The position numbers and the translations under genes are program-made. From a virus: a stretch of DNA of 64,000 nucleotides. Shown piece after piece: positions 1,684 through 50,544 of this stretch. Below the pieces are notes generated by a model. It was not told the origin of the DNA. It saw nothing but the letters and a program-made list of their open reading frames with translations, and searched no databases. The DNA is taken from UHGV virus genome UHGV-0026213. One strand, 5' to 3'. Position 1 is the first letter of the stretch. Each line of letters opens with the position of its first letter.

Positions 1684-4600
1684 CTAAGTACGATCCCCTA
1701 ACTGCTTCCCGTTAAGTTCTCGTTTCAGTACAGCCAAAATCCACTTCCACGCTTTACTCGTGATGTGGTACGGATTGCGTTTCTCCATTAAGAACTGACT
1801 TTCGCCGCTACGGAGTTCGAAGCTCTGCGCATTGAGTTGGTCTTGGCGAACACCGTTCTCGTCAGTGACATCTAACGAACAGGTAAAGTTAAGCTCGTAG
1901 CCTTCAGGATTATTACCCGGTGGTTCTAAGACAATATAAATATCCTGCCCTACACGTAGATCCTTTGGCGTAAGGGTAACTGCTTTACCTGTGTCGGCGC
2001 TGGTCGAAAGCGCAAACGGCACGCTATCAATAGCTGATACATACGCGTCCTTCCCAGCATCGCCGATAATCACCTTACCCGGCCAGTTACACTTCACCGT
2101 TCCTGTCACTTTTGCAATACGGTACTGCTGTTTATCAGTACCTTGTGCAAAGCGTAAAATGAGTTTATGCCGATACCGGTTTGCGGCAGCTTTGGATGTA
2201 CTCCACTCATTGTTCCAGGAGGTATGAAGTTCACCTTTCTTGGCCATCAAAGCACCACGAGACAGCTTACGTGGGAAGAATTGTGCCGGAAGTTGCCCAT
2301 CGTGGGAGATCGCTACACTCCCTTGTCCGGTTGGAAGTGCTATTGTTTCCGTAGGGCAATAATTTAACTCACTCACGTATGATGTAGGATCGATCAATTT
2401 CTGATAGTAATCACCGTCCTTACTGTCCGCTAACCAACCAACGGAAGAGTCCGTATACGATTCAAACAGTGAACGTAAATAGTGATACTTATCGATATCG
2501 ATGTTACCCGTTTTTGGATCGATCAGAGCATGGTTAATAGTGAGGAAACACTTCTCACTCAAACCATTAAACGCCAAACCCACACCGTCACCAGTAAAAT
2601 AGTCTACCAGGTCAAATGGAAGCGTCATTTCTATTTGTCGCAAGTTGATAGTCGTTGAACCAAACTGCGAAAAAGATAGCGCTAAACGAAGTACACGAGT
2701 ATTAACATTATAACGATAACGTATCATCCCACGCGGCGCGTGGTTCGCGGAGATCTTATCACCGTTTGCGCCCCACCCAATTAAATCGAGTATTTCAGCG
2801 TTTGTTACTTCACCGTTAAACAAAACGTCTTTAGTCGTGATTTCAACTGACGTTTCCCTTCCGGCATCCATTAACATCGAACCGTTATTCAACTCGAAGC
2901 TCTTGTGCCAAACTTCTGAAGTCGAGCCAGCACCTACACCCACCTTACAAGTTTTACTAGTAAGGTTAATACGCACATAACGGCGTCCCACTGTACCGCC
3001 CTGCGAGCTTGCACACAAAATAAGATCAGGTGCCGCAGACAGTGCCTTGGTCCCTGCAATGTCATCAACATCGAAAACGAATGAGCCTTCGAACGTTGGT
3101 GCGTTATTTTCCTTCGGGTTAAATGGTGTAAACCAACAATAAGGCATCGCGCCCTCGGTTGAGAAAATCAACTCTAAGTCAGATTTAACATTTAATCCGT
3201 GGGAATAAGAAAAAAGACCGCGACTTAAGGTACAAAGCGTACCACCACTTCCAGCACCTAACAATTTTCGATATATTAAGGCACGGGGTTCTGGGATAGC
3301 ACGGTTTAATAACGGCAACCGTGGGTTATCCGTTAACGTCCAATCTACAGAACTGAGTCCGTGTGCCTTACGAGTGCTAATGTGCTCACTAACCTCGGCA
3401 CTTTTCCCGAAATCAAATGTGGTTTCAAAACTCACGGTTTTATTCGAGTAGGATTCACCACCTGCAACAATATCAACGTAACCGATATAACCGCGCTCAG
3501 GATCGACTGCAATACTCTGAATTGGCTCAGTACGCGAATACAGAGAGCCTGTGAGCATGTTAACGTACAGATAATGACGAATCCCTACGTGTGTTGTAAC
3601 AAACTCTTGGAGAAGCTCTACGTGCGTTTCAGGCCCACTGAAATAAACGGGGTAGTCACCGTCGTAAATTTCGAATTGCACCGCTGCGGATTTAGCCGTG
3701 TCGCTACACTCAGCTTTAACCGCTACGGTGTAGTTTTCAACGTCCGCTGATGTTTCGTACACTGCAACGAGCGGAGACTGGCCTGTGGCTGCCTGGATAC
3801 CGTTAATGTAAACTGTAACCGGGCCACCCCCTGCGGCATAAACCCAAAGCTTCGGCTGGCGTGCCCTTACCCGCGTTTTTGCCAACACAGTAACAACTGA
3901 CTGGTCGCCCATCTGTGAGGCGGTTTTACCTACCGGAACAGATTGGAAACCCATTAGTGGTGGTTCTTCAATACCTGTCCAGTTAATGCCCTTACCAGCG
4001 CTCACTTTCCCCGTAGGCCAGGTCGTCTCAATTTGGTTGTTCGGTGAGAACCAGTTAAACATCGGCGTAGTTTGCAGGTCAATCGAACCTGTAACGGCGC
4101 TATCAGCTTTCGCGCCGTTCAGCAAATAGAAATACTTCAAATCTTGGACGGAGATTGCCGTACCCTGACTATTAAAGCGCCAGTCTGCGCCTTTTACCGC
4201 AGCGAAATCCGTTACCGACCCTTCTTTCGCGTTTGCAATCGCCGCAGCAACCACATCTAAACGCGCCGAAAGTTCTTTTAAGACGTTCGGCACCACTGCA
4301 CGGTTTTCAACCAAACCGTTCTGGTTAGTTGCGTAACGACCGATACCGTAAACGGTTTGCGAGGCTTTATAAATGCCTAGTTCCGACCAATCGTGGTGGT
4401 GACCTGCATCCGCTAAACCACTAAGCGCCGTATTTAACTCGGTAGACAACGGCTTGTCAACGTCTGCGGTGTTATCCGCTTGCCCTAACCCCAGATCAGC
4501 TTTCGTGATTGTCCTGGAGCCGTCATTCATCGGCTTACCGTTAATCATGGTCGTTTTAGCCACATACCCCGATAGGTCAGTTGAGTATGGTGCTAACGAA

Positions 4601-5892
4601 GCCGGTGTTGCAGCAACCCCAGTCGTTTCTGTACCTTTACCTGTTTTAAGTTTAGCGACGCCTTTTTCGGCGGTTGTCGCTTTTGTTGGGTCGATAGTCC
4701 CCACGATAGGGTCGGCGCGAGAACCTTTACCGGTAAAGCTAATCCCATTACGACCTTCAATGTACACCTTCGAGTCATCAGGGTCGCCACCGCCACCAGA
4801 ACCCGCATCTGGATCTTGTTGGTATTCCATCAACGCCGTGGTAGTCAGTAACGGGTTACCGTTCAGGGTGAGTTTGTTCATCCCTAAAGCATCGCCTGTT
4901 GACTCGATGCGTAATGTGTTTTTACCGGCACGCCAGTTGATATAACGTCCTGCACCCGTACCTTCCAGATGCCCTACCGCTAATACCACAGAACCGTTGG
5001 ATTTTAACGTAAAACCATCGTTGGCAAAAATGATTTCGGACTCACCGTTTTTCGAACGGAACTGTGCGCGGTTTCCTGACACCGTACAGTTAAACACGCC
5101 CCGCACTTCCGAAGAAATCCAGTGAGAGATATACGTATCGATAACCGACTGCGGTAAACGAAACGCTTTCAGCTCATCCGTCAGTGCTTTCAACTTTAAC
5201 CCGTACGCCATAAAGGTGTCGGGTGTTTTCAAGTTAACAGGATGCGCGTTAATCTGCGCGGATGTGGTTTCGTGCGGGTTCTTCGCTGCGATATGTGCTG
5301 GGTAATTAAATGCTTCGATTTCTTTACCCAACGCAGTCACTAACGCTTTAACTTCAGCTAATTTGTCTTTAATTAGCTGGTTAGCGTCGTCGGTTTTCAA
5401 TTCAATATCGTGAACTGCCGACGCTAAATATTTTTTGTTCAGCAAATCCGCCCAGGACGTTGCTGCTGGCGTCGCTGGATATAACGATGGTCTACCGTCT
5501 AATAACAGCCAGTCAGCACTGACTGGGTTATTCAAATATTTCACCAGTTCATCGAGAATATCAACAAACGGGTCGTAGAACGTACCGCCGAGCATTTGTC
5601 CTTCAAAGGTTACGATACCCTTGATGGATGGGTTGATAAGGTGTACCCCACAATACACGTTGGCTGCTACCGAGTCATCCAGTTCCGTCAGCTGATATTG
5701 CAGTTCGTAGTCCACCCCACGACTCAGTGGGGTGGTTGAACCTGGTTGTCTGACGACCAAATCTTCAAAGAACGGGCGGTGGTCTAAAATCACCACCCGA
5801 TCGTTGTTGTTCTCTGACCCGATGATACGCTCCTCTAAGAAGTGATTCTCGGCTTTCGTCCCCCGAGGATCGTAAGGATACGCTTTCATCAA
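1684..5892 (-). CDS. Large tail fibre protein (1402 aa)
   Basis: Contains the fibre-type repeat ITKADLGLGQADNTADVDKPLSTEL, a Gly-rich linker (GGGGDPDD) and an HHH motif; adjacent to another giant fibre gene. Confidence 0.6.
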   Translation of the reverse strand: MMKAYPYDPRGTKAENHFLEERIIGSENNNDRVVILDHRPFFEDLVVRQPGSTTPLSRGVDYELQYQLTELDDSVAANVYCGVHLINPSIKGIVTFEGQMLGGTFYDPFVDILDELVKYLNNPVSADWLLLDGRPSLYPATPAATSWADLLNKKYLASAVHDIELKTDDANQLIKDKLAEVKALVTALGKEIEAFNYPAHIAAKNPHETTSAQINAHPVNLKTPDTFMAYGLKLKALTDELKAFRLPQSVIDTYISHWISSEVRGVFNCTVSGNRAQFRSKNGESEIIFANDGFTLKSNGSVVLAVGHLEGTGAGRYINWRAGKNTLRIESTGDALGMNKLTLNGNPLLTTTALMEYQQDPDAGSGGGGDPDDSKVYIEGRNGISFTGKGSRADPIVGTIDPTKATTAEKGVAKLKTGKGTETTGVAATPASLAPYSTDLSGYVAKTTMINGKPMNDGSRTITKADLGLGQADNTADVDKPLSTELNTALSGLADAGHHHDWSELGIYKASQTVYGIGRYATNQNGLVENRAVVPNVLKELSARLDVVAAAIANAKEGSVTDFAAVKGADWRFNSQGTAISVQDLKYFYLLNGAKADSAVTGSIDLQTTPMFNWFSPNNQIETTWPTGKVSAGKGINWTGIEEPPLMGFQSVPVGKTASQMGDQSVVTVLAKTRVRARQPKLWVYAAGGGPVTVYINGIQAATGQSPLVAVYETSADVENYTVAVKAECSDTAKSAAVQFEIYDGDYPVYFSGPETHVELLQEFVTTHVGIRHYLYVNMLTGSLYSRTEPIQSIAVDPERGYIGYVDIVAGGESYSNKTVSFETTFDFGKSAEVSEHISTRKAHGLSSVDWTLTDNPRLPLLNRAIPEPRALIYRKLLGAGSGGTLCTLSRGLFSYSHGLNVKSDLELIFSTEGAMPYCWFTPFNPKENNAPTFEGSFVFDVDDIAGTKALSAAPDLILCASSQGGTVGRRYVRINLTSKTCKVGVGAGSTSEVWHKSFELNNGSMLMDAGRETSVEITTKDVLFNGEVTNAEILDLIGWGANGDKISANHAPRGMIRYRYNVNTRVLRLALSFSQFGSTTINLRQIEMTLPFDLVDYFTGDGVGLAFNGLSEKCFLTINHALIDPKTGNIDIDKYHYLRSLFESYTDSSVGWLADSKDGDYYQKLIDPTSYVSELNYCPTETIALPTGQGSVAISHDGQLPAQFFPRKLSRGALMAKKGELHTSWNNEWSTSKAAANRYRHKLILRFAQGTDKQQYRIAKVTGTVKCNWPGKVIIGDAGKDAYVSAIDSVPFALSTSADTGKAVTLTPKDLRVGQDIYIVLEPPGNNPEGYELNFTCSLDVTDENGVRQDQLNAQSFELRSGESQFLMEKRNPYHITSKAWKWILAVLKRELNGKQLGDRT

Positions 5893-5902
5893 AAAATTCT
5901 CC

Positions 5903-8900
5903 TTAATCGCGAATGATTACCGCCTGCACTTTATTGTTGGTGTCGATAAACGACATTACGCGCTCCTTGTTAAGATAAGGAGGTATCGGTAACGCAGCGT
6001 AATCCACCAGGTTGTTATTAAATTCAGTTGCCACTAACGCATTAAGCGTTTCGGGGTCTGAACTGACACCGGTCAATTCCATAACGCGCACACGATTTAA
6101 TGAGGAATAGTTGCTAATATAGTCTAACAACGTACCATAGACTTTATTCGCGGTTGCGCTATCTGCCGTAGAACGGATGTTGGCACGAACTTCATCCTCA
6201 TAAAGTCCCCCTAAACCGTAGTAAATAGGGGTATACGGATCGTTAACGATAGGTTCGATATTGAACCCTGTTAAACGGTCGGTTAATGGGATTTTCTGCG
6301 TAGTTCCCCCTGCCGCCGTACAACTTACATATTTGTCCGTCGCAGATAAATGCACCGCGACAGTATACGTAGTCCCCGCTAAGGTCAGTCTTGCACTAAA
6401 CGTTATTGCGTTGGTTGCACTACGGTTGTGGGTAAACGATACTTCAGGTTGTAATGAACTCCACGGTGCTGGCGTGACACGTTTCGTTGGTGTGAAACCC
6501 ACCACTACCGATTTCCCGCTACCGAAGTTCAAACCGAACCCTGCGTAACAATATTCACCGTTACTGTCGGTTAAACGATACCCGCGAGTGATAAGTAACG
6601 ACAACCGCATAAACTCGCCGTCGGTGTTTTTCCAACAACCTAAAACAGTTTCTAACACCGTGCCGGTTTTTGCGTTGCTTTCTGTTTCCCAACTGACTCG
6701 CATTCCTGCGTTCTTAAAAGCTGGGAACATGTTGTGGATAAACCCGTGTAGGTTATCGCTTACCCCTTTCGCGTCAAAAATCCACTTGGATGCGAGCTGG
6801 TCGTATTTCACCCCGTCTAAAGCTTTATACTGCCCACCGGCAACATAACGCCAATCTGCTTCACCGCGTACTACTGCCTGGAGTCCAGAAGCCCAGCAAG
6901 GCGCACCTACTGTTAAGTTAGCTAACCCAAGCGCTGCACGTGACGCGGAGCGCTGAATGTGTGCGTTGTCATCGGCTTTATGATCTTTCAGTTCACGGAA
7001 ATCGCCCAACCGTGTGACATTACGCATCTCCGTAACGAACACCTCAGAAATGTCGTTAACACCAATCAACCCTACACGCGTCATGGTATCCGTTTCAGCC
7101 TGACTGTAGCTGTCGTGGACAATATACTTCGCTTTGTTGTCAACAATATCAACAAAAATCCCTGCGTAGATTTCTGTATTCAATTTCGGAAAACGTTCAC
7201 TGACGTTAATCGTCATCAACGGAACGTCGTATGTTTCACCACCGATAAAATACGTTGAAGCTGGAAGCGTGACCAGAATTTTGTCTTTGACCGTAAGGTC
7301 TATTAAGTCGTTACCAGACTCACCAAAACGTATAATGTCAAGACGTGCCTCCGAGTCAACACCGCTGACAGCGCGCTCCAATTTTTCAATCTGGGATGTC
7401 TGCGCCATTACCACACTCCCATCGAGTGCTAAAGTCACATCATCCACATCCAGACCAAATTTAATCAGACCACGTTGCGCTGTGGTTGCGTTCCCTGTAC
7501 CAAAAGCGGTAAACGGGTGTTGGTGAACTTTAGGCGAGTATTTATCTAACTCCGCACGCTGTGCTGTAGAAATCGGTAAATCGGCATCGGGCGTATTCGC
7601 AACATTACCTAAACCAAAGGTAATCTTATCGATAGTAACCGAGCTGGTAAGTTGCATGTCGTTAATGTACGATTTAACTGCAACTAACTTACCGGTGAAC
7701 TCCGCATCGAGTTTTTCAATCAGTGCTGGCGTTGCTGCAAGGTTTTCAGCGGTACCGAACTCATCGGTCAACTGCCAAGCTGCCAGAGCTGTTGTATCGG
7801 TCGCGGTAGGAAGAATAAAGGTCGCTACGAACGGCGAGGCTTTTATCCCGCTACCGGTGATCGTAACCGTTGTTGTCGAACTTGCGTAGAATAAACCTGT
7901 GCCACCTGCGGTATTGCCTGGCAGATACGGGGCTACGGTGGTGGGGTCTAAGAGTTTTTTACCACGCCACAACAATCCTCGGTCATCGGGGTATAGCACA
8001 AGCTGGTTAGTACCTGCTTGGAACGTTACGGGGTTGTTACCCACGTTAACATCAGTTGAACCTTGGCCAATAAACTTGATGGATTTCGGATCAACAACAA
8101 ACTGGGCACCTAAACGTGTCTCGTCAACAACATCCGGTGCTTTCTTAATGGTAACCGTGTTACCTTTGTTTTGCGAACTAATGGTAACGGCGTCGGCAAC
8201 ATTATTGATCAGCGATTTAAAGTGGTGCTGATTCTCTAATGCTTCTAACGCAGCGTCCATGTTATCGAAGTTAATCCGACCGCTATACGTTTTACCGTTT
8301 ACGGTAATAACGACGTCAAACACGTTCCCTGTACGCTTCAGTTGAAAACGTAGCGTAAAATCCCCATCCGGTATTGCCGGATTAGGAGCTTGAGAAATAT
8401 AACGTACCGACGGTAACGGACTCCCGTAACCGTTCAATGTCAGACTGATAGTAAGGGTACCACCCCAGATTTGACCAGTAATCTCTACGAACTTACCGGA
8501 GTTACTACCCGGGTTTTCGTAGAAACGTAAACCAACCCTACCGACCGCTTCATTACCAGACGCTGTTTTACGTCCAGTAACAATAAAGTCAATATCTTGC
8601 AGGTTGGCAGGCACTGCATTAAAGTTAGCAATGAAACCGCTTTTCGCTCCTGTATAACGAAGCGCGCCGTGATATCTGTGACCACTACTAACATAGCTTT
8701 CGCTAAAATAAGGACTCACGTATTTCGACATCGAGACCGGATCAACTTCCGTCGTGAACGAAGTAAAACCCGGAAGTGTGGTAATCGTGCCGTTAACGTT
8801 CTTGCTCGGCGATTCACGAAGCAGTTTTTTCTGTGCGGTTAACGTTGCTTGTGTTGGGTACTTAGCATTAACATAATCCGTTAACTGCTGTTTCGTCTTC

Positions 8901-10225
8901 CCGTAAGCTAACGCGGCATCTGTCGCAATACCATTCAGCTCTAACGCACGGATCGGACCCCACGTATCGGTGTGCGGGTTGTCCTTACGTGTAACGTGTT
9001 CGTGTGCAGGCGCGTTACGATACAGCTGCTCAACTAACTGATGGTATTTGACTATTAACTGGTAAACATCGTTATCGATGTCAGGTTCTGGTGCGCCGGG
9101 TAAAGAACGAATTTGAATATAATCGTTTTCGGCCGCATACCAGTTTAAATTAATGTTCGTTTTAAACTTCAACCATTTAGCAACATCCGTTTTCGAATAC
9201 CCTGCCGAGAACTCATCAGGCGGCGTATCGACATTGAATGTGTAATCCATGGTCTGTTTATTTGTTTTTACTACGATGACGTAAACACCGTTTCCGGGTT
9301 GACGGGTTACACTAAAATCGATATCGTTTTTTAACTCATCGTCAGTTAAACCGTTGATTAACGTATAATCGTAGTTTGTTGAACCGCTACCAATAGCGAC
9401 CGTTAAGACCAGTGAGATTTTGCGCTGTTTTAGCTGCAGCCGTAGAATACTTGCACCGCCGTTAGCATAACAGAGCATCCAATCGATCTGTTCGTTTGGA
9501 TTCAATTTCGTCATGTCTGGCAGAATAGCAGGAATTATGTGTTTCACTGACAGGGCGTAGTCGTTAAAGGTTGCAGTTTTATAACTCAAGCTATAACGAT
9601 GACGGGCAGTGTTGTAGGTGAAGCCACCTTTATTGTCGTATACGGCATACTGCTCGGAAGTGATAACCTTGCTATTAGCACGGTATTCTAAATCCAGGGT
9701 ATTGCGTGCGATGGGGTTAAGCCGACTCACGACTTCCCCTAACGAATCGCCTAATCCAGCAATAGCCTGCATTAATTCCAGTTCACCTTTCCAATTCTCC
9801 CAATCGAACTGAATATCGACCGGCGGAAAGTAAACGTCCCCGATGACGGTGTCCCACTGACACGCAGACGGGTATTTATCTTTATTGAGTTCGCGTTCTG
9901 CGCTAATCTGTTGTTGGGTAGCCTGACCACAACCAACGGCGTGGTAATCTACCGTAAAATTCGATTTGTATTTGTCATTAACAATCCAAATCATCCCGTG
10001 AATGAGATAGGCTGTGCGCAACATACCGGTCTCGTACGGGTGTGTAATAACGTAATCGTCGCCTAAGGTCAGTGTTTTGCCGCCGCTCTTGACCACCAGG
10101 GATGTGGTGAAAAAAGGGGCGTGGGCAGGTACCAACATTCGGTATTTCGTACCAATGACGGCGACCGCTTCACCGGTTATTTTATTCCCCGGTTTTTTGA
10201 AGTGTGGGTCTAAGACGACAGCCAT
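5903..10225 (-). CDS. Large tail fibre protein (1440 aa)
   Basis: Contains the repeat KITFGLGNVANTPDADLPISTAQRAEL, matching the motif in the neighbouring fibre; 10-nt gap to the downstream gene suggests co-transcription. Confidence 0.6.
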   Translation of the reverse strand: MAVVLDPHFKKPGNKITGEAVAVIGTKYRMLVPAHAPFFTTSLVVKSGGKTLTLGDDYVITHPYETGMLRTAYLIHGMIWIVNDKYKSNFTVDYHAVGCGQATQQQISAERELNKDKYPSACQWDTVIGDVYFPPVDIQFDWENWKGELELMQAIAGLGDSLGEVVSRLNPIARNTLDLEYRANSKVITSEQYAVYDNKGGFTYNTARHRYSLSYKTATFNDYALSVKHIIPAILPDMTKLNPNEQIDWMLCYANGGASILRLQLKQRKISLVLTVAIGSGSTNYDYTLINGLTDDELKNDIDFSVTRQPGNGVYVIVVKTNKQTMDYTFNVDTPPDEFSAGYSKTDVAKWLKFKTNINLNWYAAENDYIQIRSLPGAPEPDIDNDVYQLIVKYHQLVEQLYRNAPAHEHVTRKDNPHTDTWGPIRALELNGIATDAALAYGKTKQQLTDYVNAKYPTQATLTAQKKLLRESPSKNVNGTITTLPGFTSFTTEVDPVSMSKYVSPYFSESYVSSGHRYHGALRYTGAKSGFIANFNAVPANLQDIDFIVTGRKTASGNEAVGRVGLRFYENPGSNSGKFVEITGQIWGGTLTISLTLNGYGSPLPSVRYISQAPNPAIPDGDFTLRFQLKRTGNVFDVVITVNGKTYSGRINFDNMDAALEALENQHHFKSLINNVADAVTISSQNKGNTVTIKKAPDVVDETRLGAQFVVDPKSIKFIGQGSTDVNVGNNPVTFQAGTNQLVLYPDDRGLLWRGKKLLDPTTVAPYLPGNTAGGTGLFYASSTTTVTITGSGIKASPFVATFILPTATDTTALAAWQLTDEFGTAENLAATPALIEKLDAEFTGKLVAVKSYINDMQLTSSVTIDKITFGLGNVANTPDADLPISTAQRAELDKYSPKVHQHPFTAFGTGNATTAQRGLIKFGLDVDDVTLALDGSVVMAQTSQIEKLERAVSGVDSEARLDIIRFGESGNDLIDLTVKDKILVTLPASTYFIGGETYDVPLMTINVSERFPKLNTEIYAGIFVDIVDNKAKYIVHDSYSQAETDTMTRVGLIGVNDISEVFVTEMRNVTRLGDFRELKDHKADDNAHIQRSASRAALGLANLTVGAPCWASGLQAVVRGEADWRYVAGGQYKALDGVKYDQLASKWIFDAKGVSDNLHGFIHNMFPAFKNAGMRVSWETESNAKTGTVLETVLGCWKNTDGEFMRLSLLITRGYRLTDSNGEYCYAGFGLNFGSGKSVVVGFTPTKRVTPAPWSSLQPEVSFTHNRSATNAITFSARLTLAGTTYTVAVHLSATDKYVSCTAAGGTTQKIPLTDRLTGFNIEPIVNDPYTPIYYGLGGLYEDEVRANIRSTADSATANKVYGTLLDYISNYSSLNRVRVMELTGVSSDPETLNALVATEFNNNLVDYAALPIPPYLNKERVMSFIDTNNKVQAVIIRD

Positions 10226-20887: not shown

Positions 20888-20965
20888 CGTTTGGGAGAAC
20901 CTTCGGGTTCTCCCTTTCTTTATTTTTTTCTTTTTACACCACACTCCGTCTTTATGGAGGTGGGT

Positions 20966-23470
20966 ATGCTAAAAGTTGAACGCATTATACTCAAAGGTTT
21001 TACGGGGATGGGGTTACATGAAATTGAAACCTTCGATTTCACTATCCAGTCTCCGACAACAATTATCCTGGGTGGGAACGGCTGCGGGAAAACCAGTCTA
21101 CTGTCTGTGTTCTTACCCTTAGCACCGGCTAAAACAGAATTTAGGGACGGCGGTTCTTACACAAACTACTGTTTAGTTGGCGATCAACGCTATCGTTTCA
21201 AAGTTGCTCGTAAAGGCAACTCATTGGTTTGCGATATTGAGAACTTGACTACGGGGGCAAAGATCGTCGAGCAAGGTAATGCGAAAGTCTACAACTCCCG
21301 TGTTGAAGAAATCACAGGTATTACGAAAGAGATTAAAGAATTATTAAATGGTGAGGTGTTGTTAACCGATGCGGGAACTGAATTACGCCGCAAATGGTTT
21401 TACCGTTTAAGTACCTCTGACCTCACTTACGCGTTAGGGTTTTATCAACGTTTACGTAAAAACCTTACTGCCTTAAATGGGGGTATTGAAATCACCAGCC
21501 GTAAAATCGCCGAATTGCGGACGCGTGTTATTGAGAACGAGGAAGAACGGCAGCAGTTGGCGACGAGATTAAAAGGTTTGGAATCGGATTTACGTGAACT
21601 GAACCGAGAAATCGAACAGTTGCCAGGATTAAATCGTGCCGTCACCATCGAAACAATCCAAGCGTTATTAAACAGCTTGGGCCCAACCATCGACGCAATA
21701 TTACAACATCGTGGTGGACTGCCTACTGATGAACAGATACTGGCCGCGCGACAAAACGAAGCGACGGCCCGCGAAGCTGTCGTGTCTACTGAAACAGAGG
21801 TATCGATGTTGAATAAAGACTTGTCGTTATTGATGGATGAGTCGACACGACAGGACTACCTGATGCGGAATCACGAAGGTCTCAAGAATACGCTGGCACG
21901 TTTACGTGAGTTACTTACCAAATGGGACACTGAACATCTCTTTCCGGGTCTATTTAACGATAACGTCAATTTAGACCAACTTCGTGCGGCTACCGACGCG
22001 CGTGTTTGGGGACAACGGTTAGGAACAACGCTGGACGCAATTCATTCGACCGAAAAACTCAATGTTTTGGAAGAACGGCTTCTGGTGATGGATCAAAAAA
22101 CCGCCGGGTTGCGGGATAGACTCCAGCGAGTGGAGAACGTTTTACAGAATTTAAATCACGAACGTAACCACTACTTAGAAACAGCGGAAGTGGATTGTCC
22201 GCAGTGTCGGTTTAAGTTTCGACCAGGCGTTACGCGTTCTTTGCCTGAACTTGAGTCTTCGATTCGTGGACAGCAACAGCAGCGCACGGAACTGCAAACG
22301 CAGTTAGAGACCTTATTACGCGATCGTGTTGAATTAGAATCTGATGTAACTTATATGCGGCAGGTTCGTGAGATTGTACTGACGTATTCAAAGGACCCGG
22401 TATTGAGCATGTTCTTTAAGCGTTTGCAAGAACGTAACGTTTTCACAGAATCACGCGAACAGTTCGGGAGTCTATGCGCAGCGTTTGACAGCGAGTTGTA
22501 CTCTGCTATTGAGTACCATGAAACCCGTCAACGGTTAGTGAAGGCGGAAAAAGAATGGCAGGATGCCGTGGCGACCGTTGGTAACGTCGATGGTGCTTTA
22601 CAACAGAAAATCGCCTTCCAACAGTCACGATTAGGTAAAGCCACAGAAATGCTCTCAATGCGTCGTAGAGAGCACGAACTGGCTAACACGACACTTACCT
22701 ATCTGGTGAATGTTAAACGTGCTGTAGATGATTTCAGTGCGTTATTCGAACGGTTAGAGAGTGATGTTAAGGTTACGTTGACAAATACGGTCGTCGAGGA
22801 ACTCTTACGTGCACGAGAAGGGAAGCTGGATGCTTTTACAACCGCACGCGAACGTTATCGTCAGATGGAAAATGAATTGAATCAGCTCAACAGTTTGGAA
22901 CGCGAACTTGCTGACTTACAAGCCCAGCAGTTCAATAACAAACTGATGATTCAAGCCTTCTCTCCAGAAAAGGGTGTACTTAGAAAGTATTTTTACAACG
23001 CTATCGTTAGAATCACAGAGTTAATGACGCGTTATATCGAACAAGTCTGGACGTACCCCATGCGCGTTATGCCTTGTGACCTCACTGACGGTGATTTGGA
23101 TTATACTTTTCCTGTCCAGCTAAAAACGCATCCTGAGCCTGTTCCTGACGTGCGTAAAGGGTCTAAGGCGCAGCGTGCGATATTTAATCTGATGTTCAGG
23201 CTGACTGCGTACAAAGCGCTGATGTTGCATCAGTTTCCATTGCTTTTGGATGAGCCTTCGGAAGGCATGGATGAGGAGCACCGTAACAACCTGGTCGGCT
23301 TTATTAAAACGTTAGCAAACTCGGGAGAATTTTCTCAACTGTTGGTAGTCTCCCACGAAGCCGAGGTTCATTCTAAACTTAATGAAGCATCGTACTGTGT
23401 CATCGAACCGGAAGGGGTGACATTGCCTGCGGTGTATAACGAAGGAGTAAAAATTGTTTATGCAAACTGA
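20966..23470 (+). CDS. SbcC/Rad50/SMC-family ATPase
   Basis: N-terminal Walker A ILGGNGCGKTSLL, long central coiled-coil region, C-terminal Walker B-like PLLLDEPSEGMD then VVSHE. Start refined to an internal ATG with GGAGG SD; the ORF-track start at 20891 overlaps the upstream terminator. Confidence 0.6.
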   Translation: MLKVERIILKGFTGMGLHEIETFDFTIQSPTTIILGGNGCGKTSLLSVFLPLAPAKTEFRDGGSYTNYCLVGDQRYRFKVARKGNSLVCDIENLTTGAKIVEQGNAKVYNSRVEEITGITKEIKELLNGEVLLTDAGTELRRKWFYRLSTSDLTYALGFYQRLRKNLTALNGGIEITSRKIAELRTRVIENEEERQQLATRLKGLESDLRELNREIEQLPGLNRAVTIETIQALLNSLGPTIDAILQHRGGLPTDEQILAARQNEATAREAVVSTETEVSMLNKDLSLLMDESTRQDYLMRNHEGLKNTLARLRELLTKWDTEHLFPGLFNDNVNLDQLRAATDARVWGQRLGTTLDAIHSTEKLNVLEERLLVMDQKTAGLRDRLQRVENVLQNLNHERNHYLETAEVDCPQCRFKFRPGVTRSLPELESSIRGQQQQRTELQTQLETLLRDRVELESDVTYMRQVREIVLTYSKDPVLSMFFKRLQERNVFTESREQFGSLCAAFDSELYSAIEYHETRQRLVKAEKEWQDAVATVGNVDGALQQKIAFQQSRLGKATEMLSMRRREHELANTTLTYLVNVKRAVDDFSALFERLESDVKVTLTNTVVEELLRAREGKLDAFTTARERYRQMENELNQLNSLERELADLQAQQFNNKLMIQAFSPEKGVLRKYFYNAIVRITELMTRYIEQVWTYPMRVMPCDLTDGDLDYTFPVQLKTHPEPVPDVRKGSKAQRAIFNLMFRLTAYKALMLHQFPLLLDEPSEGMDEEHRNNLVGFIKTLANSGEFSQLLVVSHEAEVHSKLNEASYCVIEPEGVTLPAVYNEGVKIVYAN

Positions 23471-23959: not shown

Positions 23960-24439
23960 TTGCAAATGGAAATTTATTTGTTGAACGCATCTTCTAAAGT
24001 CGGTGAGCGTCAAGCTGCCGATTTACTCAAACTACACTACCGTTACTTAGACCACCAGGCCACGTTACTGAAAATCAAAATGTCGGTGCCGAAGTTAAAT
24101 GCGCGACAGCTGATCGAAGGTAACTGCATAGTTCTGGTGTATCAGGATGATGTCGCGGTAGGATACTGTAGTTATCGGAATCGTAACGGTTCACTTAAGA
24201 TACGTTCGGTATACGTGCTCCCAGACTATCGTCAACGGGGTGTAATGAAAGAGATTTTCAAAGCAATTGCAGCTATGCGAAATGTAAAGAAGCAAAAGAG
24301 TATTTCATCCGACGCGGCTATCAGGCGGTTTACTCACGCGATCGTGAGTGGGTCGATTTTAGCAAAACATTCTAAAAACAATAAAGCTCTCTTGGCGTAC
24401 CTCACTATGAGTGTGAGAAATTTACGTCAGGAGAGCTAA
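23960..24439 (+). CDS. GNAT-like acetyltransferase fold protein (tentative)
   Basis: VGYCSY...VYVLPDYRQRGVMKEIF resembles GNAT motif A; weak. Confidence 0.35.
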   Translation: MQMEIYLLNASSKVGERQAADLLKLHYRYLDHQATLLKIKMSVPKLNARQLIEGNCIVLVYQDDVAVGYCSYRNRNGSLKIRSVYVLPDYRQRGVMKEIFKAIAAMRNVKKQKSISSDAAIRRFTHAIVSGSILAKHSKNNKALLAYLTMSVRNLRQES

Positions 24440-24441
24440 TT

Positions 24442-24687
24442 ATGTTAAAATCGTGCGGAGTGGGTGGTTTGGATACGAGTATTTGTTGGAAGGAATACGA
24501 ACGTGCGAAAGCGTTCTTACAACATCCCAATGTGGGGACAATAGGTAAGGTCTGTTTCGGCAAACCTTCACTGACGGCCTGTATCCAAGGGGCTTTAGGG
24601 ACGTTGCCACCCGAATCACATTTCGAGCCTGAGGAGAATATGAATGTTCACAGAGAACCCATCAATTTACGGCATACCGTTGAATGA
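24442..24687 (+). CDS. Hypothetical protein (81 aa)
   Basis: SD CAGGAGAG upstream of ATG. Confidence 0.35.
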   Translation: MLKSCGVGGLDTSICWKEYERAKAFLQHPNVGTIGKVCFGKPSLTACIQGALGTLPPESHFEPEENMNVHREPINLRHTVE

Positions 24688-25012
24688 AATTGATATTCTG
24701 CAAATTTGTTATCAGTGTGGCGACTTCGGTAAGACGCAGGTAACGCCGTTAGTTAATCTTTTAGGTTACTTGCCTGAAATCGAGCTACCTTTTGTTAAAC
24801 CTAGCTTAGTTCGTCGCGCATCGTGTCGTGAAGCTTATTTGCTCTGGAAACACAATATTTCAGTAGAGAAGGTCTGGGACCGTATGAACGATCATCAGTT
24901 CCGTGAGCAGGTCGTGCACACGCTTAACTTGGCACTGACTATGCAACGCCTGGGCTTACAACACGAGGGTTTAGAAGCGGCGGTCAAGCAATGGATTACG
25001 AAAAATCGATAA
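24644..25012 (+). CDS. Hypothetical protein (122 aa)
   Basis: SD GAGGAG 7 nt upstream; overlaps the previous ORF in another frame. Confidence 0.4.
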   Translation: MFTENPSIYGIPLNEIDILQICYQCGDFGKTQVTPLVNLLGYLPEIELPFVKPSLVRRASCREAYLLWKHNISVEKVWDRMNDHQFREQVVHTLNLALTMQRLGLQHEGLEAAVKQWITKNR

Positions 25013-25036
25013 TGGGTAAAACATATATCGCTATAC

Positions 25037-25597
25037 TTGTCGAGCTATCAATCGGCGGTACACGTTTTAATACTACACATCAACTCCGGGCGTTTCGTTA
25101 TGTTAACGGTACGTAAAGAATCTGAAATTGGTAACGATCTTTTTAATGCGCCCGAAGACTATAAAGTCGTTACCATTAACTGCGTAGGAGCGATGGGACG
25201 TGGCATTGCACTCGCGTGTCGTGAACGCTACCCCAACCTTTATCAAGATTACCGTAAGCGGTGTCGTGAAGACGAAATTAAGATTGGAAGCGTTTACGTT
25301 TACTCTGACGAAAAGTGTATCTTGCTCCCCACGAAAACACATTGGCGTTTAAAATCCCAGGTTTCTTATGTTACTGCGGGCATTACCGCACTAGCGGATT
25401 GTGCTGAGGATCTGGATACCAGCGTTGCTATCCCTCCATTGGGAATGGCAAACGGGTGGTTAGATTCCTGGGAAAGACAAGAAATCTTTTTGTGGCTTTA
25501 CAAAAAACTTGAACCGAGGAGGCAACGCTACACGTTATACTTACCTGTTAAGTTGTATCAAGAAGCAGAGTCATTAATTCCAAACTCTTTTAAATAG
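25037..25597 (+). CDS. Macro-domain protein, TARG1/DarG/Poa1p-like (predicted ADP-ribose hydrolase)
   Basis: VVTINCVGAMGRGIALACRERYP and AIPPLGMANGWLDSWE resemble the two signature segments of TARG1-type macro domains. Confidence 0.5.
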   Translation: MSSYQSAVHVLILHINSGRFVMLTVRKESEIGNDLFNAPEDYKVVTINCVGAMGRGIALACRERYPNLYQDYRKRCREDEIKIGSVYVYSDEKCILLPTKTHWRLKSQVSYVTAGITALADCAEDLDTSVAIPPLGMANGWLDSWERQEIFLWLYKKLEPRRQRYTLYLPVKLYQEAESLIPNSFK

Positions 25598-25606
25598 ATA
25601 TTATCA
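25590..25606 (+). promoter_or_regulatory. Promoter-like motif AAATAGATATTATCA
   Basis: One of three copies of AGATATTATC, each 35-70 nt upstream of a gene start (see also 35085 and 44203). Confidence 0.35.
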
Positions 25607-25670
25607 TTAGGGCACACAACAAAGGAGTATTAGCTGTCCGCGCCGTCATTTCGTCTTACGGAATACGGAA

Positions 25671-26396
25671 ATGTATAAATCCAACTGGAGAAACAAAATG
25701 TTTCGTATCTTCTTTCTTTTACTGGTAACACTTTTCGCGTTTAACGCACAGGCGTCAACGTCAACGCCACATTCTAAGCATCAGCGTGAGTTTGCACAAA
25801 TCCAACATCGGTTCGAAAAAGTCAGCCCGTTAATTGTGGAAATCTCACGAAAGCAGGGCGTTGATCCCAAGCTGATGATTACGCTGATTTATCGTGAATC
25901 GCGTTTTGATCCCAAGGCTTACAACAAAAGCTCACGAGCACATAGCCTGGTACAGATGCTTCCAAGTACCAAGCGTAATCTGCTAAAGCTTTATGGAAAA
26001 GAATTAGGTCTTAGTCAGAACGCTGATTTGTATAATCCGCGTAATGCTGTTTTGCTGGCTACCGCGTATGTTAAACATCTTGAGAAGGGGTTAACCAAAC
26101 GACTCAAACGCAAGCCCACCATGGCTGAAATTGCGTTAGCTTACCACTGGGGTGAAAGTGGCGCTCACACGCGAATCAAAAGCAAATCTCGAGCAGCACA
26201 ACGAGAAATGGCAGGCTTTATGAAAGACGCCGCGTTCTATAGCGCGAAAATCGATGTGCCTGTTGTTGTGGGCTCGGCCCCACGTCAGCTTGCGTTTGCG
26301 AAGAAAACACCACGTCAGATTCAACTGGCGGAAGTTAGTAGAATTTGGGATACGATAAACACGAGTTTTCCAATCAATAGAGGAGTTACCCTTTGA
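25671..26396 (+). CDS. Secreted lytic transglycosylase (SLT domain)
   Basis: Signal peptide MFRIFFLLLVTLFAFNAQA (probable true start at the internal ATG near 25698) and catalytic-region motif IYRESRFDPKAYNKSSRAHSLVQMLPST. Confidence 0.6.
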   Translation: MYKSNWRNKMFRIFFLLLVTLFAFNAQASTSTPHSKHQREFAQIQHRFEKVSPLIVEISRKQGVDPKLMITLIYRESRFDPKAYNKSSRAHSLVQMLPSTKRNLLKLYGKELGLSQNADLYNPRNAVLLATAYVKHLEKGLTKRLKRKPTMAEIALAYHWGESGAHTRIKSKSRAAQREMAGFMKDAAFYSAKIDVPVVVGSAPRQLAFAKKTPRQIQLAEVSRIWDTINTSFPINRGVTL

Positions 26397-26902
26397 GCAT
26401 CGTAGTAACCGATTGGTATAAAGGCATTACAAAAGCCGCACAATTGACCGCGAAAGACGTTTACAGTATCGTCCGAAGCAGTATCGAAGACGAGATTAAG
26501 TCGGATGAAGAATTCGCTGAGAAACACGAATTTTACGATGCTTTACCCACAGCATTCGGTGATGACGAAGAAGAAGGTTTAGAGTTTGACTGGAACGTCA
26601 ACCTTGCCTTGTTGTGGATTTGTGGTTTACGACCAACGGTAAAAGAAACCGAAGAAGGGAAAGTCTTGCTTTGGAATTTTACCGGGCAGTATAACCGTAA
26701 TTTAGTCTTTAAACAGGCGTATATGGACGCTACTGTAGAACTTCAAAATCTACTGCTTGGTGAAAACACATACTGCCAGCGTAGTTTTCTAACGATTCTG
26801 GAAAAACTTGTGTCGACACACAAGGTCTGGCGTAAAGAAGACGCCCCAGAACACATGTTCATTTTAGAGTACGCTGTCATTCCAAATCAGCCGTTCTTCT
26901 AA
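26393..26902 (+). CDS. Hypothetical acidic protein (169 aa)
   Basis: ORF followed by a terminator hairpin. Confidence 0.45.
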   Translation: MSIVVTDWYKGITKAAQLTAKDVYSIVRSSIEDEIKSDEEFAEKHEFYDALPTAFGDDEEEGLEFDWNVNLALLWICGLRPTVKETEEGKVLLWNFTGQYNRNLVFKQAYMDATVELQNLLLGENTYCQRSFLTILEKLVSTHKVWRKEDAPEHMFILEYAVIPNQPFF

Positions 26903-26968
26903 TCCCTACCCCTTACCCTTTGTGGAGTAAGGGGTACTTTTATTTTCATTCCCTAAAGGAGCAGAGTT

Positions 26969-27448
26969 ATGATAAAGTTCATTTGGCGTTATCCAACGCG
27001 TTTTTGGTTTGTGGTACTTGAATTGTTTATGGTCCTTGTGGCGATTACTTTTGTCGAAGCGCCCGCCTCGCAGTTGGCTATTTTCTGCCTTTTCGTGACT
27101 GTCCCTGTATGGGTGATTGCGAAGGCTATTAAGTTCGTCATGGTGTGTTGGGCGAATTATACCTGTCCGTATAAACCTAAACAAATCATGAACTGGCTGA
27201 TGTATATTGAAGAACGTTTACCGGCGCAGCATAAATTACTGGGCTGGTCGTCAATGTTGGATATTGCGCTAGAAACCAATGCAAAGTTTCCCGGTGCGAA
27301 AAACCCTTATTTGTTGATGGCAGTAATTGTTGCACAACAAAAACTGGTAGGTGACCGTTGGTTGCCAGAAGAAGCGAAAGCGTATATCCGTAAACATCCA
27401 AAAGCTTTTTACTCGGTAGGACAATGGCGTAACTTGCCATTATTTTAA
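26969..27448 (+). CDS. Membrane protein (about 3 TM helices)
   Basis: SD AAAGGAG; hydrophobic segments FWFVVLELFMVLVAITFV and AIFCLFVTVPVWVIA. Confidence 0.5.
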   Translation: MIKFIWRYPTRFWFVVLELFMVLVAITFVEAPASQLAIFCLFVTVPVWVIAKAIKFVMVCWANYTCPYKPKQIMNWLMYIEERLPAQHKLLGWSSMLDIALETNAKFPGAKNPYLLMAVIVAQQKLVGDRWLPEEAKAYIRKHPKAFYSVGQWRNLPLF

Positions 27449-45667: not shown

Positions 45668-46907
45668 AGGTCAGTCAGCAATCGATAATTCCGTTAATAC
45701 GGCAAAGAACGCCGCAAACCGCGTACAAACAACGGTGGAAAATGCGGAGCGTGGTATTAAAAACACGGTCGATAGCGTCAACCGATTATCAGAACGTGCT
45801 GGTGAAACATTCAACAAACTGATTGGCGGTGGTAACGAACTGACCAGCAAAATTGGTAACCTTTTTGGCGGTAGTGATACCGCCAGTGTTGGAGGAAGTA
45901 AGACTGCGGGGAGTTCAGCCTCGGGGGTGTCGCCAGGACAAAAGGTTCCCGGTTTTGCATCTAACACCAAAGAAACGCTTCCTGTCCTCGACCCACAAAA
46001 GCGTGACGTTTCTGAACCCTTTAAGAAAAAGGATGAAGATGGCCTAAAAGCGCTAGACTACCTAAGTCCAGGCGGGATGGGGAAACTGTTAAATAAAGGG
46101 TGGGACAGCATCGGCAGCTTAACCGACTCTGTTTTATCAGGTATCGGCACCGACTTTAACTCAGTGAAAAAACGTCTCGAAGGGACGATGAACATTGCTG
46201 GGCAACTGGCTAAACTCCCCTCGGAAGTTAGTCAAGAAGTCAACGGCTTTATGTCCGAAGTCAACAGTATGCGTTATCAAATCACCTCGATCGTTGATGA
46301 CGTACAGCATACTTTCGACAGCTACAAAGACTTAGACGACTTCTTAGCCATCGATAACCTGATTAACAGCTTTAAAGGCAGCAACAGTTTCTCCACGTTA
46401 GATATTAATACCTCTTCGGCGTTGATTTATGGCCTGTCTACCAAACTGAACAGTTATGGTTTACCGGCTAAAATCGAACCGATGCTTCAAGCGATTACCG
46501 ATGCGCAAGCGAAAGAGGTACTGTACGGCGAGCTGATGATTCAGGCAGCAGCGACAGGTAATCTGGATTCAACGGAATACTATCTGGATAAACTCCAACC
46601 GGGGCAAGGGACTCAGATCGCAACCACCGTTATCCAGAACCTTATGGCTAACCTTCGGGTTGAACCCGGTGTCAGTTTCAAAACGTATGGCACTCGTCTA
46701 TTAACGTTATTTAAAGGATTAGATGCAAAATGGGACAAAGCGAAAAACATCACGCCAGAAATGACTGAACTTAAACTTTACACCTATGCAGGCGTAAATG
46801 CGATTCAGGCGCTACTAACCACCGAGAAACGTAATTACGTGATTGCTGCAGGCAGTGTAAGTTACCAGTCTACCGATAAAATCGTGGAAGACTATTTTGC
46901 AATTTAA
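45633..46907 (+). CDS. Hypothetical Ser/Gly/Thr-rich protein (about 424 aa)
   Basis: Start refined to the internal ATG with GGAGACC SD; the ORF-track start at 45606 overlaps the upstream gene. Confidence 0.45.
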   Translation: MKIDQITSQINKGQSAIDNSVNTAKNAANRVQTTVENAERGIKNTVDSVNRLSERAGETFNKLIGGGNELTSKIGNLFGGSDTASVGGSKTAGSSASGVSPGQKVPGFASNTKETLPVLDPQKRDVSEPFKKKDEDGLKALDYLSPGGMGKLLNKGWDSIGSLTDSVLSGIGTDFNSVKKRLEGTMNIAGQLAKLPSEVSQEVNGFMSEVNSMRYQITSIVDDVQHTFDSYKDLDDFLAIDNLINSFKGSNSFSTLDINTSSALIYGLSTKLNSYGLPAKIEPMLQAITDAQAKEVLYGELMIQAAATGNLDSTEYYLDKLQPGQGTQIATTVIQNLMANLRVEPGVSFKTYGTRLLTLFKGLDAKWDKAKNITPEMTELKLYTYAGVNAIQALLTTEKRNYVIAAGSVSYQSTDKIVEDYFAI

Positions 46908-47739
46908 GAGGCCGGTTATGTCCGAACCACAATTACTGCGTTCCGTATTAAAGAAGATCAAAAGCCAGGGTGAAGACAATCAAGCTTTGGCATTAACGCT
47001 GGGTTATCAACCTGGGCGAAATAATCCTAATGGATACGTTAACGCGTCAAACATCGTGCTTACTCCTGATGAGCGCTTTGTTTATGTCCTATACCTTCGT
47101 CGTTTAGGCTACGTTTGTGCGTTACCCGAAAAACTCCCTTTTACCGATGGTATCAACCATCTTAACCTTTACTCTAACGGTCGTACTACCGTAGGGAAAA
47201 TGATCAGTAACTTCTACGCGCAACCTAACGGTGCGAAATTCGACACAATTCACGGTCAGTTTTTAACGTTAGAAGGCTACTATCATTATTTAAGGATCGT
47301 AGACTATCTGTTCTACAAAGGCTACGGAATAAACGCTTTGGGTCGTTTGGAAACTGAATATCCTGACATCCGTTTATTACGCACCCTGACTGGGGCTGAA
47401 TGTATACAACGCGGTCGGCGATTAAAGGCGAGCATTTACGGGGGCACGGATTATCGGCCTGGCGAGTTTAGCGATTACGCGAACGGTGCATTTCAAAACG
47501 CATTACTGCGTAAACTCCGACTCTTGAAGTTTGACGGAAGCTGCTTAGGTAATGTGTTATCGTACTGTCATTCGATGGGATTACCGTTCTTGCATTACTA
47601 CGTTATGAACGGCCGGGTTATTACACCACCCCATTCGGAATGGCTTCCTAATCTGGTGGTTTCTATTGTAGAAAACATCGATTTTAACGACACAACGTTC
47701 GACATTACGAGCGTCAGTGAAAGTATGGGATTAATCTAA
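46897..47739 (+). CDS. NADAR/YbiA (DUF1768)-like protein, putative N-glycosidase or ADP-ribosyl hydrolase
   Basis: KMISNFYAQPNGAKFDTIHGQFLTLEGYYHYL resembles the YbiA core FSNF..P...DG..YPT.EHYFQ. Confidence 0.4.
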   Translation: MQFKRPVMSEPQLLRSVLKKIKSQGEDNQALALTLGYQPGRNNPNGYVNASNIVLTPDERFVYVLYLRRLGYVCALPEKLPFTDGINHLNLYSNGRTTVGKMISNFYAQPNGAKFDTIHGQFLTLEGYYHYLRIVDYLFYKGYGINALGRLETEYPDIRLLRTLTGAECIQRGRRLKASIYGGTDYRPGEFSDYANGAFQNALLRKLRLLKFDGSCLGNVLSYCHSMGLPFLHYYVMNGRVITPPHSEWLPNLVVSIVENIDFNDTTFDITSVSESMGLI

Positions 47740-50224: not shown

Positions 50225-50544
50225 TGACTGTGAACGACAATATAAAGAAAAAGATTGACGAAATCATAAGCGTCAGTTTAGATAGAATCGAATTAATTCC
50301 CGAAACTAAGGAGATCAAATATTACGTTCCTGCGGACGAACTATTTCCAGGTCTTCTTAGAATCTCACCAAAAAAGGTTGAAGAGGCTAAACGGCAATTC
50401 GAAGTTCGTGGCCTTAAGGTTGACATTGTTAACAAAAAACATTTCCAAGTAACGTATAGTCAGGAAAACATTATATTTAGTCCTGAACAAGCGCAACGTA
50501 ATTTAGATATTTTAACGAAACGAATGGGGAATAATAACAAATGA
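50224..50544 (+). CDS. Hypothetical protein (106 aa)
   Basis: Start overlaps the upstream stop; its stop overlaps the thyA start. Confidence 0.4.
   Translation: MTVNDNIKKKIDEIISVSLDRIELIPETKEIKYYVPADELFPGLLRISPKKVEEAKRQFEVRGLKVDIVNKKHFQVTYSQENIIFSPEQAQRNLDILTKRMGNNNK

Follow-up and report, generated by a model that had tools for sequence, protein, structure and literature searches.

Which ADP-ribose marks, if any, would be removed by the small macrodomain protein encoded at 25037-25597 of UHGV virus genome UHGV-0026213, and is this protein likely to shield the phage from its host? The DNA analysed is a stretch of 64,000 nucleotides of this virus (the window), in which a first-pass annotation had picked out this open reading frame (ORF) as a stand-alone macro domain of the TARG1/DarG type that might reverse ADP-ribosylation by DarT-type toxins. 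We place the gene at 25100-25597 on the + strand and consider its product a likely AdfM (anti-DarT factor macro) orthologue, an orphan DarG2-type macrodomain that would erase the marks left by DarT2, in a jumbo phage resembling SPN3US and Asesino.

The macrodomain and its gene

The maximal ORF on the + strand extends from a TTG at 25037 to the stop codon at 25595-25597 and would encode 186 residues. Apart from this TTG, the frame contains one start, the ATG at 25100, and from there the product would have 165 residues. This ATG is the likely true start, since the close homologues are 161-166 residues long and align from residues 1-7 and since public gene calls also begin there; the gene is therefore trimmed to 25100-25597, stop included. 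The homologues came from a collection of 5.8 billion proteins, where all close relatives fell within this length range and aligned from residues 1-7 of the 165-residue form, and gene calls for the identical 165-residue product exist in no fewer than 23 public contigs, of which several measure 224-225 kb. The in-frame upstream extension (25037-25099, + strand) would add 21 residues that have no counterpart in any homologue, and these 63 bases are probably untranslated. A scan for sigma-70 promoters and intrinsic terminators in the surroundings of the gene gave no more than shuffled sequence would yield, as would be expected of a phage with RNA polymerases of its own.

The Pfam Macro model (PF01661) matched residues 25-116 with 26.9 bits against a gathering cut-off of 22, and PHROG 335 was matched at 2.5e-35. 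In a phmmer search of the PDB, the DarG macrodomains of M. tuberculosis (5m3i, 2.6e-25) and T. aquaticus (5m31/5m3e, 2.6e-20) ranked first. A family profile built from 31 homologues (alignment A2) raised these matches to 2e-45 and 2e-41, respectively, followed by the T. africanus DarTG fusion (1e-27), TARG1 (1e-7) and, weaker still, viral nsP3 macrodomains. The dedicated DarG models of PADLOC (1.4e-36, model positions 7-152 of 329) and NCBIfam (antitoxin_DarG, 1.5e-35, model positions 7-155 of 338; 123 bits against an equivalog cut-off of 250) were likewise matched, in both cases over the first half only. The AlphaFold2 model made from A2 had a mean predicted local distance difference test score of 93.5 and a predicted template modelling (TM) score of 0.90. 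When it was compared with the PDB by Foldseek, the top three entries were again DarG macrodomains (5m3e, 5m3i and 5m31; target-normalised TM-scores of 0.83-0.86, root-mean-square deviation ~2 Å). Next in rank were T. africanus DarTG and then Streptomyces SCO6735 (5e3b), which PMC9411070 describes as cleaving thymidine-linked ADP-ribose, and TARG1. The significant profile matches to macrodomains, far above chance, bear out the macrodomain signature that had been read from the letters, and "DarG-type macrodomain" is a more exact name for this protein than "TARG1/DarG type".

The residues expected of an active enzyme are in place. In alignment A1, which joins the window protein with phage and bacterial (DarG) sequences, the catalytic Asn27 (codon 25178-25180, + strand) lies in an invariant column and corresponds to N22 of T. 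aquaticus (Taq) DarG and N23 of PhiKZ AdfM. The catalytic Lys79 of the PTK motif (codon 25334-25336, + strand) corresponds to K80 of Taq DarG and K78 of PhiKZ AdfM and is invariant in A1 and A2. The catalytic roles of these counterparts are given in the legend of fig. 1 of PMC13309987. The first phosphate-binding loop, VGAMGRGIA (residues 29-37; 25184-25210, + strand), contains V29, G30, M32, G33, G35 and A37, which are invariant in the phage and DarG sequences. The second, aligned in A1, is PPLGMANGW (residues 112-120; 25433-25459, + strand), as against PPLGxGNGG in DarG and PPLGCANGG in PhiKZ AdfM. The Ala of this loop is thus also found in PhiKZ AdfM, a known active enzyme, and W120, kept almost without exception in the SPN3US/Asesino clade, is Gly in both DarG and PhiKZ AdfM. 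Asn27, Lys79 and both glycine-rich loops are kept across the 31 homologues, down to 34% identity.

The domain architecture sets the protein apart from the bacterial antitoxins. It shares with the DarG2 proteins of T. aquaticus and M. tuberculosis the macrodomain fold, 39-42% identity over the domain and the equivalents of N22 and K80. Unlike them, it ends with the macrodomain and lacks the C-terminal DarT-binding domain; no DarT gene is adjacent, and being phage-encoded it would act in trans. We therefore rejected the possibility of a full-length DarG antitoxin, given the missing DarT-binding domain, the missing DarT partner gene and the DarG models being matched in their first half only. When all six frames of the 64-kb window were searched with a hidden Markov model, this macrodomain was the only one. 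The description of the protein as standing alone holds, as a single macrodomain of 165 residues.

Relationship to AdfM and predicted function

In 2026, Morgan et al. (Cell Rep; PMC13309987) gave the name AdfM to PhiKZ gp104 and its chimallivirus homologues, among which Asesino gp217 is listed. Over 96% of its length, the window protein shares 61.6% identity with this Asesino gp217 (YP_009290835.1); in SPN3US the orthologue is gp196. Gene order around it is collinear over ~12 kb with both Asesino and SPN3US: 14 window ORFs were compared between 20.3 and 32.1 kb, and 11 of them have collinear homologues in the SPN3US stretch and 10 in the Asesino stretch, at 31-82% identity. By sequence and by position, therefore, the window protein is the orthologue of a named AdfM. 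Like the named members (PhiKZ gp104, PhiPA3 gp108, Goslar gp83 and Asesino gp217), it is a stand-alone DarG2-type macrodomain of ~160 residues with the catalytic Asn and Lys, encoded by a phiKZ-related jumbo phage. It differs from PhiKZ gp104, to which it is 34-40% identical, in lacking a 14-residue insertion and in having Trp120 in place of Gly in the PPLGxxNGG motif.

AdfM function was studied experimentally in PMC13309987. The PhiKZ protein strips off the ADP-ribose that DarT2 has placed at TNTC in an oligonucleotide, an activity lowered by the N23A substitution, and it saves E. coli from DarT2. Deletion of AdfM from PhiKZ or PhiPA3 costs the phage 3-6 logs of titre on DarTG2 hosts, where the phage DNA becomes ADP-ribosylated, replication is ~four-fold lower and genomes fail to be packaged. 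The AdfM proteins of Asesino, PhiKZ and PhiPA3 accumulate in the phage nucleus, and import of gp104 requires PicA and a folded surface patch, with no linear sequence signal (PMC11087766).

By analogy with these relatives, we propose that the window protein has the same substrate, activity, destination and counter-defence role. On single-stranded phage DNA, host DarT2 would ADP-ribosylate the thymidines within TNTC motifs. The phage enzyme would hold the ADP-ribose in the macrodomain pocket formed by the VGAMGRGIA and PPLGMANGW loops and would use Asn27 and Lys79 to hydrolyse the bond between thymidine and ADP-ribose. This would probably take place in the phage nucleus after import of the enzyme, and the restoration of unmodified DNA would allow replication and packaging to continue. 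Since the DarT-binding domain is absent, the phage protein would not bind or block the toxin as DarG2 does, and would be purely an eraser. The window DNA contains 2214 TNTC sites against an expected 2160 +/- 38, i.e. there is no depletion. This means that TNTC is not avoided and that the DNA of this phage would be an ordinary DarT2 substrate. The earlier suggestion that the protein reverses DarT-type DNA ADP-ribosylation is thus supported for DarT2, through the experiments on orthologous AdfM proteins, the 61.6% identity to Asesino gp217, the synteny and the catalytic residues. DarT1 is not an expected target, the marks of that toxin being reversed by NADAR enzymes (PMC11825919).

Several points weigh against this assignment. 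Enzymatic proof comes only from PhiKZ AdfM, at 34-40% identity, and the experiments within the SPN3US/Asesino clade are confined to the localisation of Asesino gp217. Trp120 replaces the Gly of DarG and PhiKZ AdfM in the diphosphate-binding loop and could bear on substrate choice, and sequence is in general a poor guide to macrodomain substrates. As for the phage nucleus, a tblastn search of the 64-kb window with 23 PhiKZ proteins, including ChmA, PicA and RNA polymerase subunits, gave no match, so that the window alone does not tell whether the phage forms a nucleus. Asesino and SPN3US have been found experimentally to form a nucleus (PMC11724907; reviewed in PMC13282480). In addition, a chimallin cluster 58% identical to Asesino ChmA is present on contigs of 222-225 kb from Salmonella and E. 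coli assemblies and from metagenomes. These contigs and those carrying the macrodomain gene belong to the same size class and come from the same kinds of sources. The synteny with Asesino and SPN3US together with this cluster suggests that the phage probably builds a nucleus, the link between cluster and macrodomain gene being one of size and source and not of a shared contig.

If the protein were not a DNA eraser, it might remove ADP-ribose from proteins or RNA, either reversing host ADP-ribosyltransferase defences or tuning a transferase of the phage, much as TARG1 acts on proteins. Human TARG1/OARD1 (4j5q, 4j5r and 4j5s) is a detectable relative in the same macrodomain clade. It has the same fold (TM-score ~0.8) and a catalytic lysine, K84, at the same position in a (P/I)TK motif. 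Some distant homologues of the window protein, from Streptomyces and Arthrobacter phages, also belong to genes that carry an ADP-ribosyltransferase annotation. TARG1, however, which acts mainly on protein-linked ADP-ribose, is far more distant in sequence (1e-7 against 1e-45 for DarG, and 19% identity), so that the DarG match is better by ~38 orders of magnitude. The orthologous family acts on DarT2-modified DNA, and no ADP-ribosyltransferase was seen among the window ORFs in a scan that covered part of them. We regard a protein or RNA eraser as unlikely; the reversal of protein ADP-ribosylation, which the first-pass annotation had also named, was neither borne out nor refuted by these results.

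Slightly less probable again is an enzyme of small-molecule ADP-ribose metabolism, such as an ADP-ribose-1''-phosphate phosphatase, an O-acetyl-ADP-ribose deacetylase or a degrader of immune signals derived from ADP-ribose. Such a role has been proposed for the Macro domains of jumbo phages (PMC7824862). PHROG 335 carries the label "phosphatase", many GenBank homologues are labelled "Appr-1-p processing", and the ADP-ribose 1''-phosphate phosphatase 6lft is among the weak PDB matches. Matches of the 6lft type are confined to 50-60 N-terminal residues with E ~1e-6, whereas DarG is matched along the whole protein at 1e-45; the labels are legacy terms older than the work on DarG and AdfM, and the phenotype of AdfM loss is specific to DarTG2. 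On these grounds "phosphatase / Appr-1-p processing" was rejected as the primary function. The clade-specific change from Gly to Trp in the second phosphate loop might instead be taken as the mark of a catalytically weak ADP-ribose "reader" module, or of a decaying gene with no part in counter-defence. The conservation of Asn27, Lys79 and both loops described above, the identical protein on many independent contigs and the confident, compact structure model make this very improbable. Compared with an AdfM orthologue directed at DarT2 marks, all three explanations account less well for how the similarities rank and for the published phenotype.

Phage lineage and gene neighbourhood

At the protein level, the best matches of the AdfM-like protein were in the SPN3US group of Salmonella jumbo phages (~64-65%) and in the Erwinia phages phiEaH2, Stratton and Asesino (~62%), with homologues in PhiKZ, PhiPA3-like phages and Goslar at 34-40% identity. 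A megablast search (>=85% identity mode) of positions 24000-27000 against deposited phages gave no match, and the lineage is therefore not a sequenced isolate. Metagenome and Logan contigs, at least 23 in number, carry the same 165-residue protein in the same gene neighbourhood, among them ENA scaffolds of 224,967 and 223,910 bp, and variants 88-89% identical occur in Salmonella enterica assemblies. Unlike the named AdfM carriers, then, the window appears to represent an uncultured SPN3US-like jumbo-phage lineage of ~224 kb that is frequent in sequencing data and absent from the phage isolate collection.

The genes surrounding the macrodomain gene follow the order of the Asesino locus, namely SbcC-like, GNAT, macrodomain and SLT transglycosylase. 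The SbcC/SMC-like ATPase (20891-23470, + strand; phrog_77, 4e-92) is the orthologue of Asesino gp207 and SPN3US gp186, to which it is 71% and 57% identical, respectively. The GNAT acetyltransferase (23960-24439, + strand; Pfam Acetyltransf_1) is, from synteny, the orthologue of Asesino gp212. Directly downstream of the macrodomain gene lies the SLT lytic transglycosylase (25671-26396, + strand; Pfam SLT, 8.8e-15), the orthologue of Asesino gp218 and SPN3US gp198, at 50-51% identity and in the same position. A small phrog_11720 protein of unknown function is also a neighbour. Elsewhere, the window holds further phiKZ-like genes for giant virion proteins, a gp181-like tail lysin, a UvsX-like recombinase and an RNase H. 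Two giant virion structural genes, at 1684-5892 and 5903-10225 (both - strand; 1402 and 1440 residues), are adjacent paralogues that share phrog_8078, 7557, 7449 and 2163.

DarG-like macrodomains were also encountered outside the nucleus-forming phages, at 32-38% identity, in 77-kb E. coli phages (including BASEL Bas91) and in Vibrio phage VAP7. In the Streptomyces and Arthrobacter phages, they lie inside the genes annotated as ADP-ribosyltransferases. Examples of such hits beyond the chimalliviruses are OR757434.1, PQ850614.1, NC_048765.1 and MW291021.1. Orphan DarG-type erasers may thus extend beyond the AdfM proteins of chimalliviruses.

Pfam scans of 20 further window ORFs, including the ten that flank 46918-47739, gave nothing informative other than a thymidylate synthase (50541-52076, + strand). 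This ORF encodes 511 residues, and the Pfam model of 266 positions is stretched over residues 2-511. The excess is an in-frame insertion of ~205 residues between "IWDSW" and "GDLGPVYGKQWRDW", which matches HNH endonuclease PHROGs (phrog_2081, 1e-28); the ThyA gene of SPN3US has only ~339 residues. No obvious intein junction residues were seen at the insertion, which could be an in-frame mobile endonuclease insertion.

A candidate second eraser and implications

The first-pass annotation had also pointed to a NADAR-like enzyme at 46897-47739. This ORF most likely starts at the ATG at 46918, which gives the 273 residues that its homologues also have, and the NADAR fold was recovered by comparison of folds, with no sequence profile matching it. 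From fold comparison and motif alignment, the protein (46918-47739, + strand) has a divergent NADAR-fold core at about residues 75-250, with an invariant SNF (residues 97-99), E119 and R126. It matches PHROG 652, of "unknown function", at 4.6e-67. No match was obtained in Pfam, NCBIfam or PADLOC, with NADAR (PF08719) and Phage_30_3 (PF08010) both missing even at E <=10. A phmmer search of the PDB returned only a chance-level match to MsbA (E 1.3), a profile comparison with E. coli YbiA by hhalign found nothing, and we found no description of the phrog_652 family in the literature. In a MAFFT alignment with YbiA and with stand-alone phage homologues of 148-182 residues, the N.YS, SNF, P, G and E motifs nevertheless line up. 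E119 is invariant and aligned to the Glu of YbiA, and seven positions further on is the invariant Arg126, which is Lys in two of the four remote homologues; the catalytic pair of T4 AdfN is E36/K43 (PMC11825919). Two remote homologues gave Pfam matches below threshold, to NADAR (E 0.006) and to Phage_30_3 (E 2.8e-4), the latter being the family of T4 gp30.3, i.e. AdfN.

AdfN (T4 gp30.3, Bas32 and Bas60; PMC11825919) is, like AdfM, an orphan antitoxin-like eraser carried by phages. It differs from the macrodomain gene in having another fold and in acting on guanosine modified by DarT1, and it does not reverse DarT2 marks. The second window gene shares the NADAR fold with AdfN and differs from it in an N-terminal extension of ~75 residues and in lying below every sequence-profile threshold. 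AdfA and AdfB counter the same defence system in another way, as direct DarT inhibitors and not erasers of marks, according to the introduction of PMC13309987. It is possible, though we hold this only tentatively, that the phage carries two complementary erasers of DNA ADP-ribose, with AdfM acting on the thymidine marks of DarT2 and the product of 46918-47739 (SPN3US gp224/Asesino gpg246-type, phrog_652) acting on the guanosine marks of DarT1. In Klebsiella phage fENko-Kae01, a stand-alone NADAR-like homologue, ENKO_375 (1468-1962 of the stretch examined), lies ~600 bp upstream of ENKO_376 (2585-3480), which is annotated as an ADP-ribosylglycohydrolase; this arrangement suggests that another jumbo phage may group genes related to ADP-ribose.

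The identification of this locus illustrates that a real counter-defence gene can be found by reading sequence alone. The carriers of AdfM now include an uncultured lineage of ~224 kb known from metagenomes, with close relatives in Salmonella assemblies. Since the mechanism, localisation and phenotype of AdfM were published in 2026, the window protein adds a member to this family and opens no new question, and of the items nearby, the cryptic NADAR-fold protein is the most unusual. From an AdfM in this lineage one would predict that DarTG2-carrying hosts are open to infection by the phage and its SPN3US-like relatives, which bears on the prediction of jumbo-phage host range for therapy or biocontrol. 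If the product of 46918-47739 is active, it would represent a new and widespread AdfN-like clade that current annotation has missed, spanning SPN3US-like chimalliviruses, Ackermannviridae and several Vibrio, Klebsiella and Pseudomonas phages. The nucleus-forming phages would then back their shell with a full anti-DarT toolkit.
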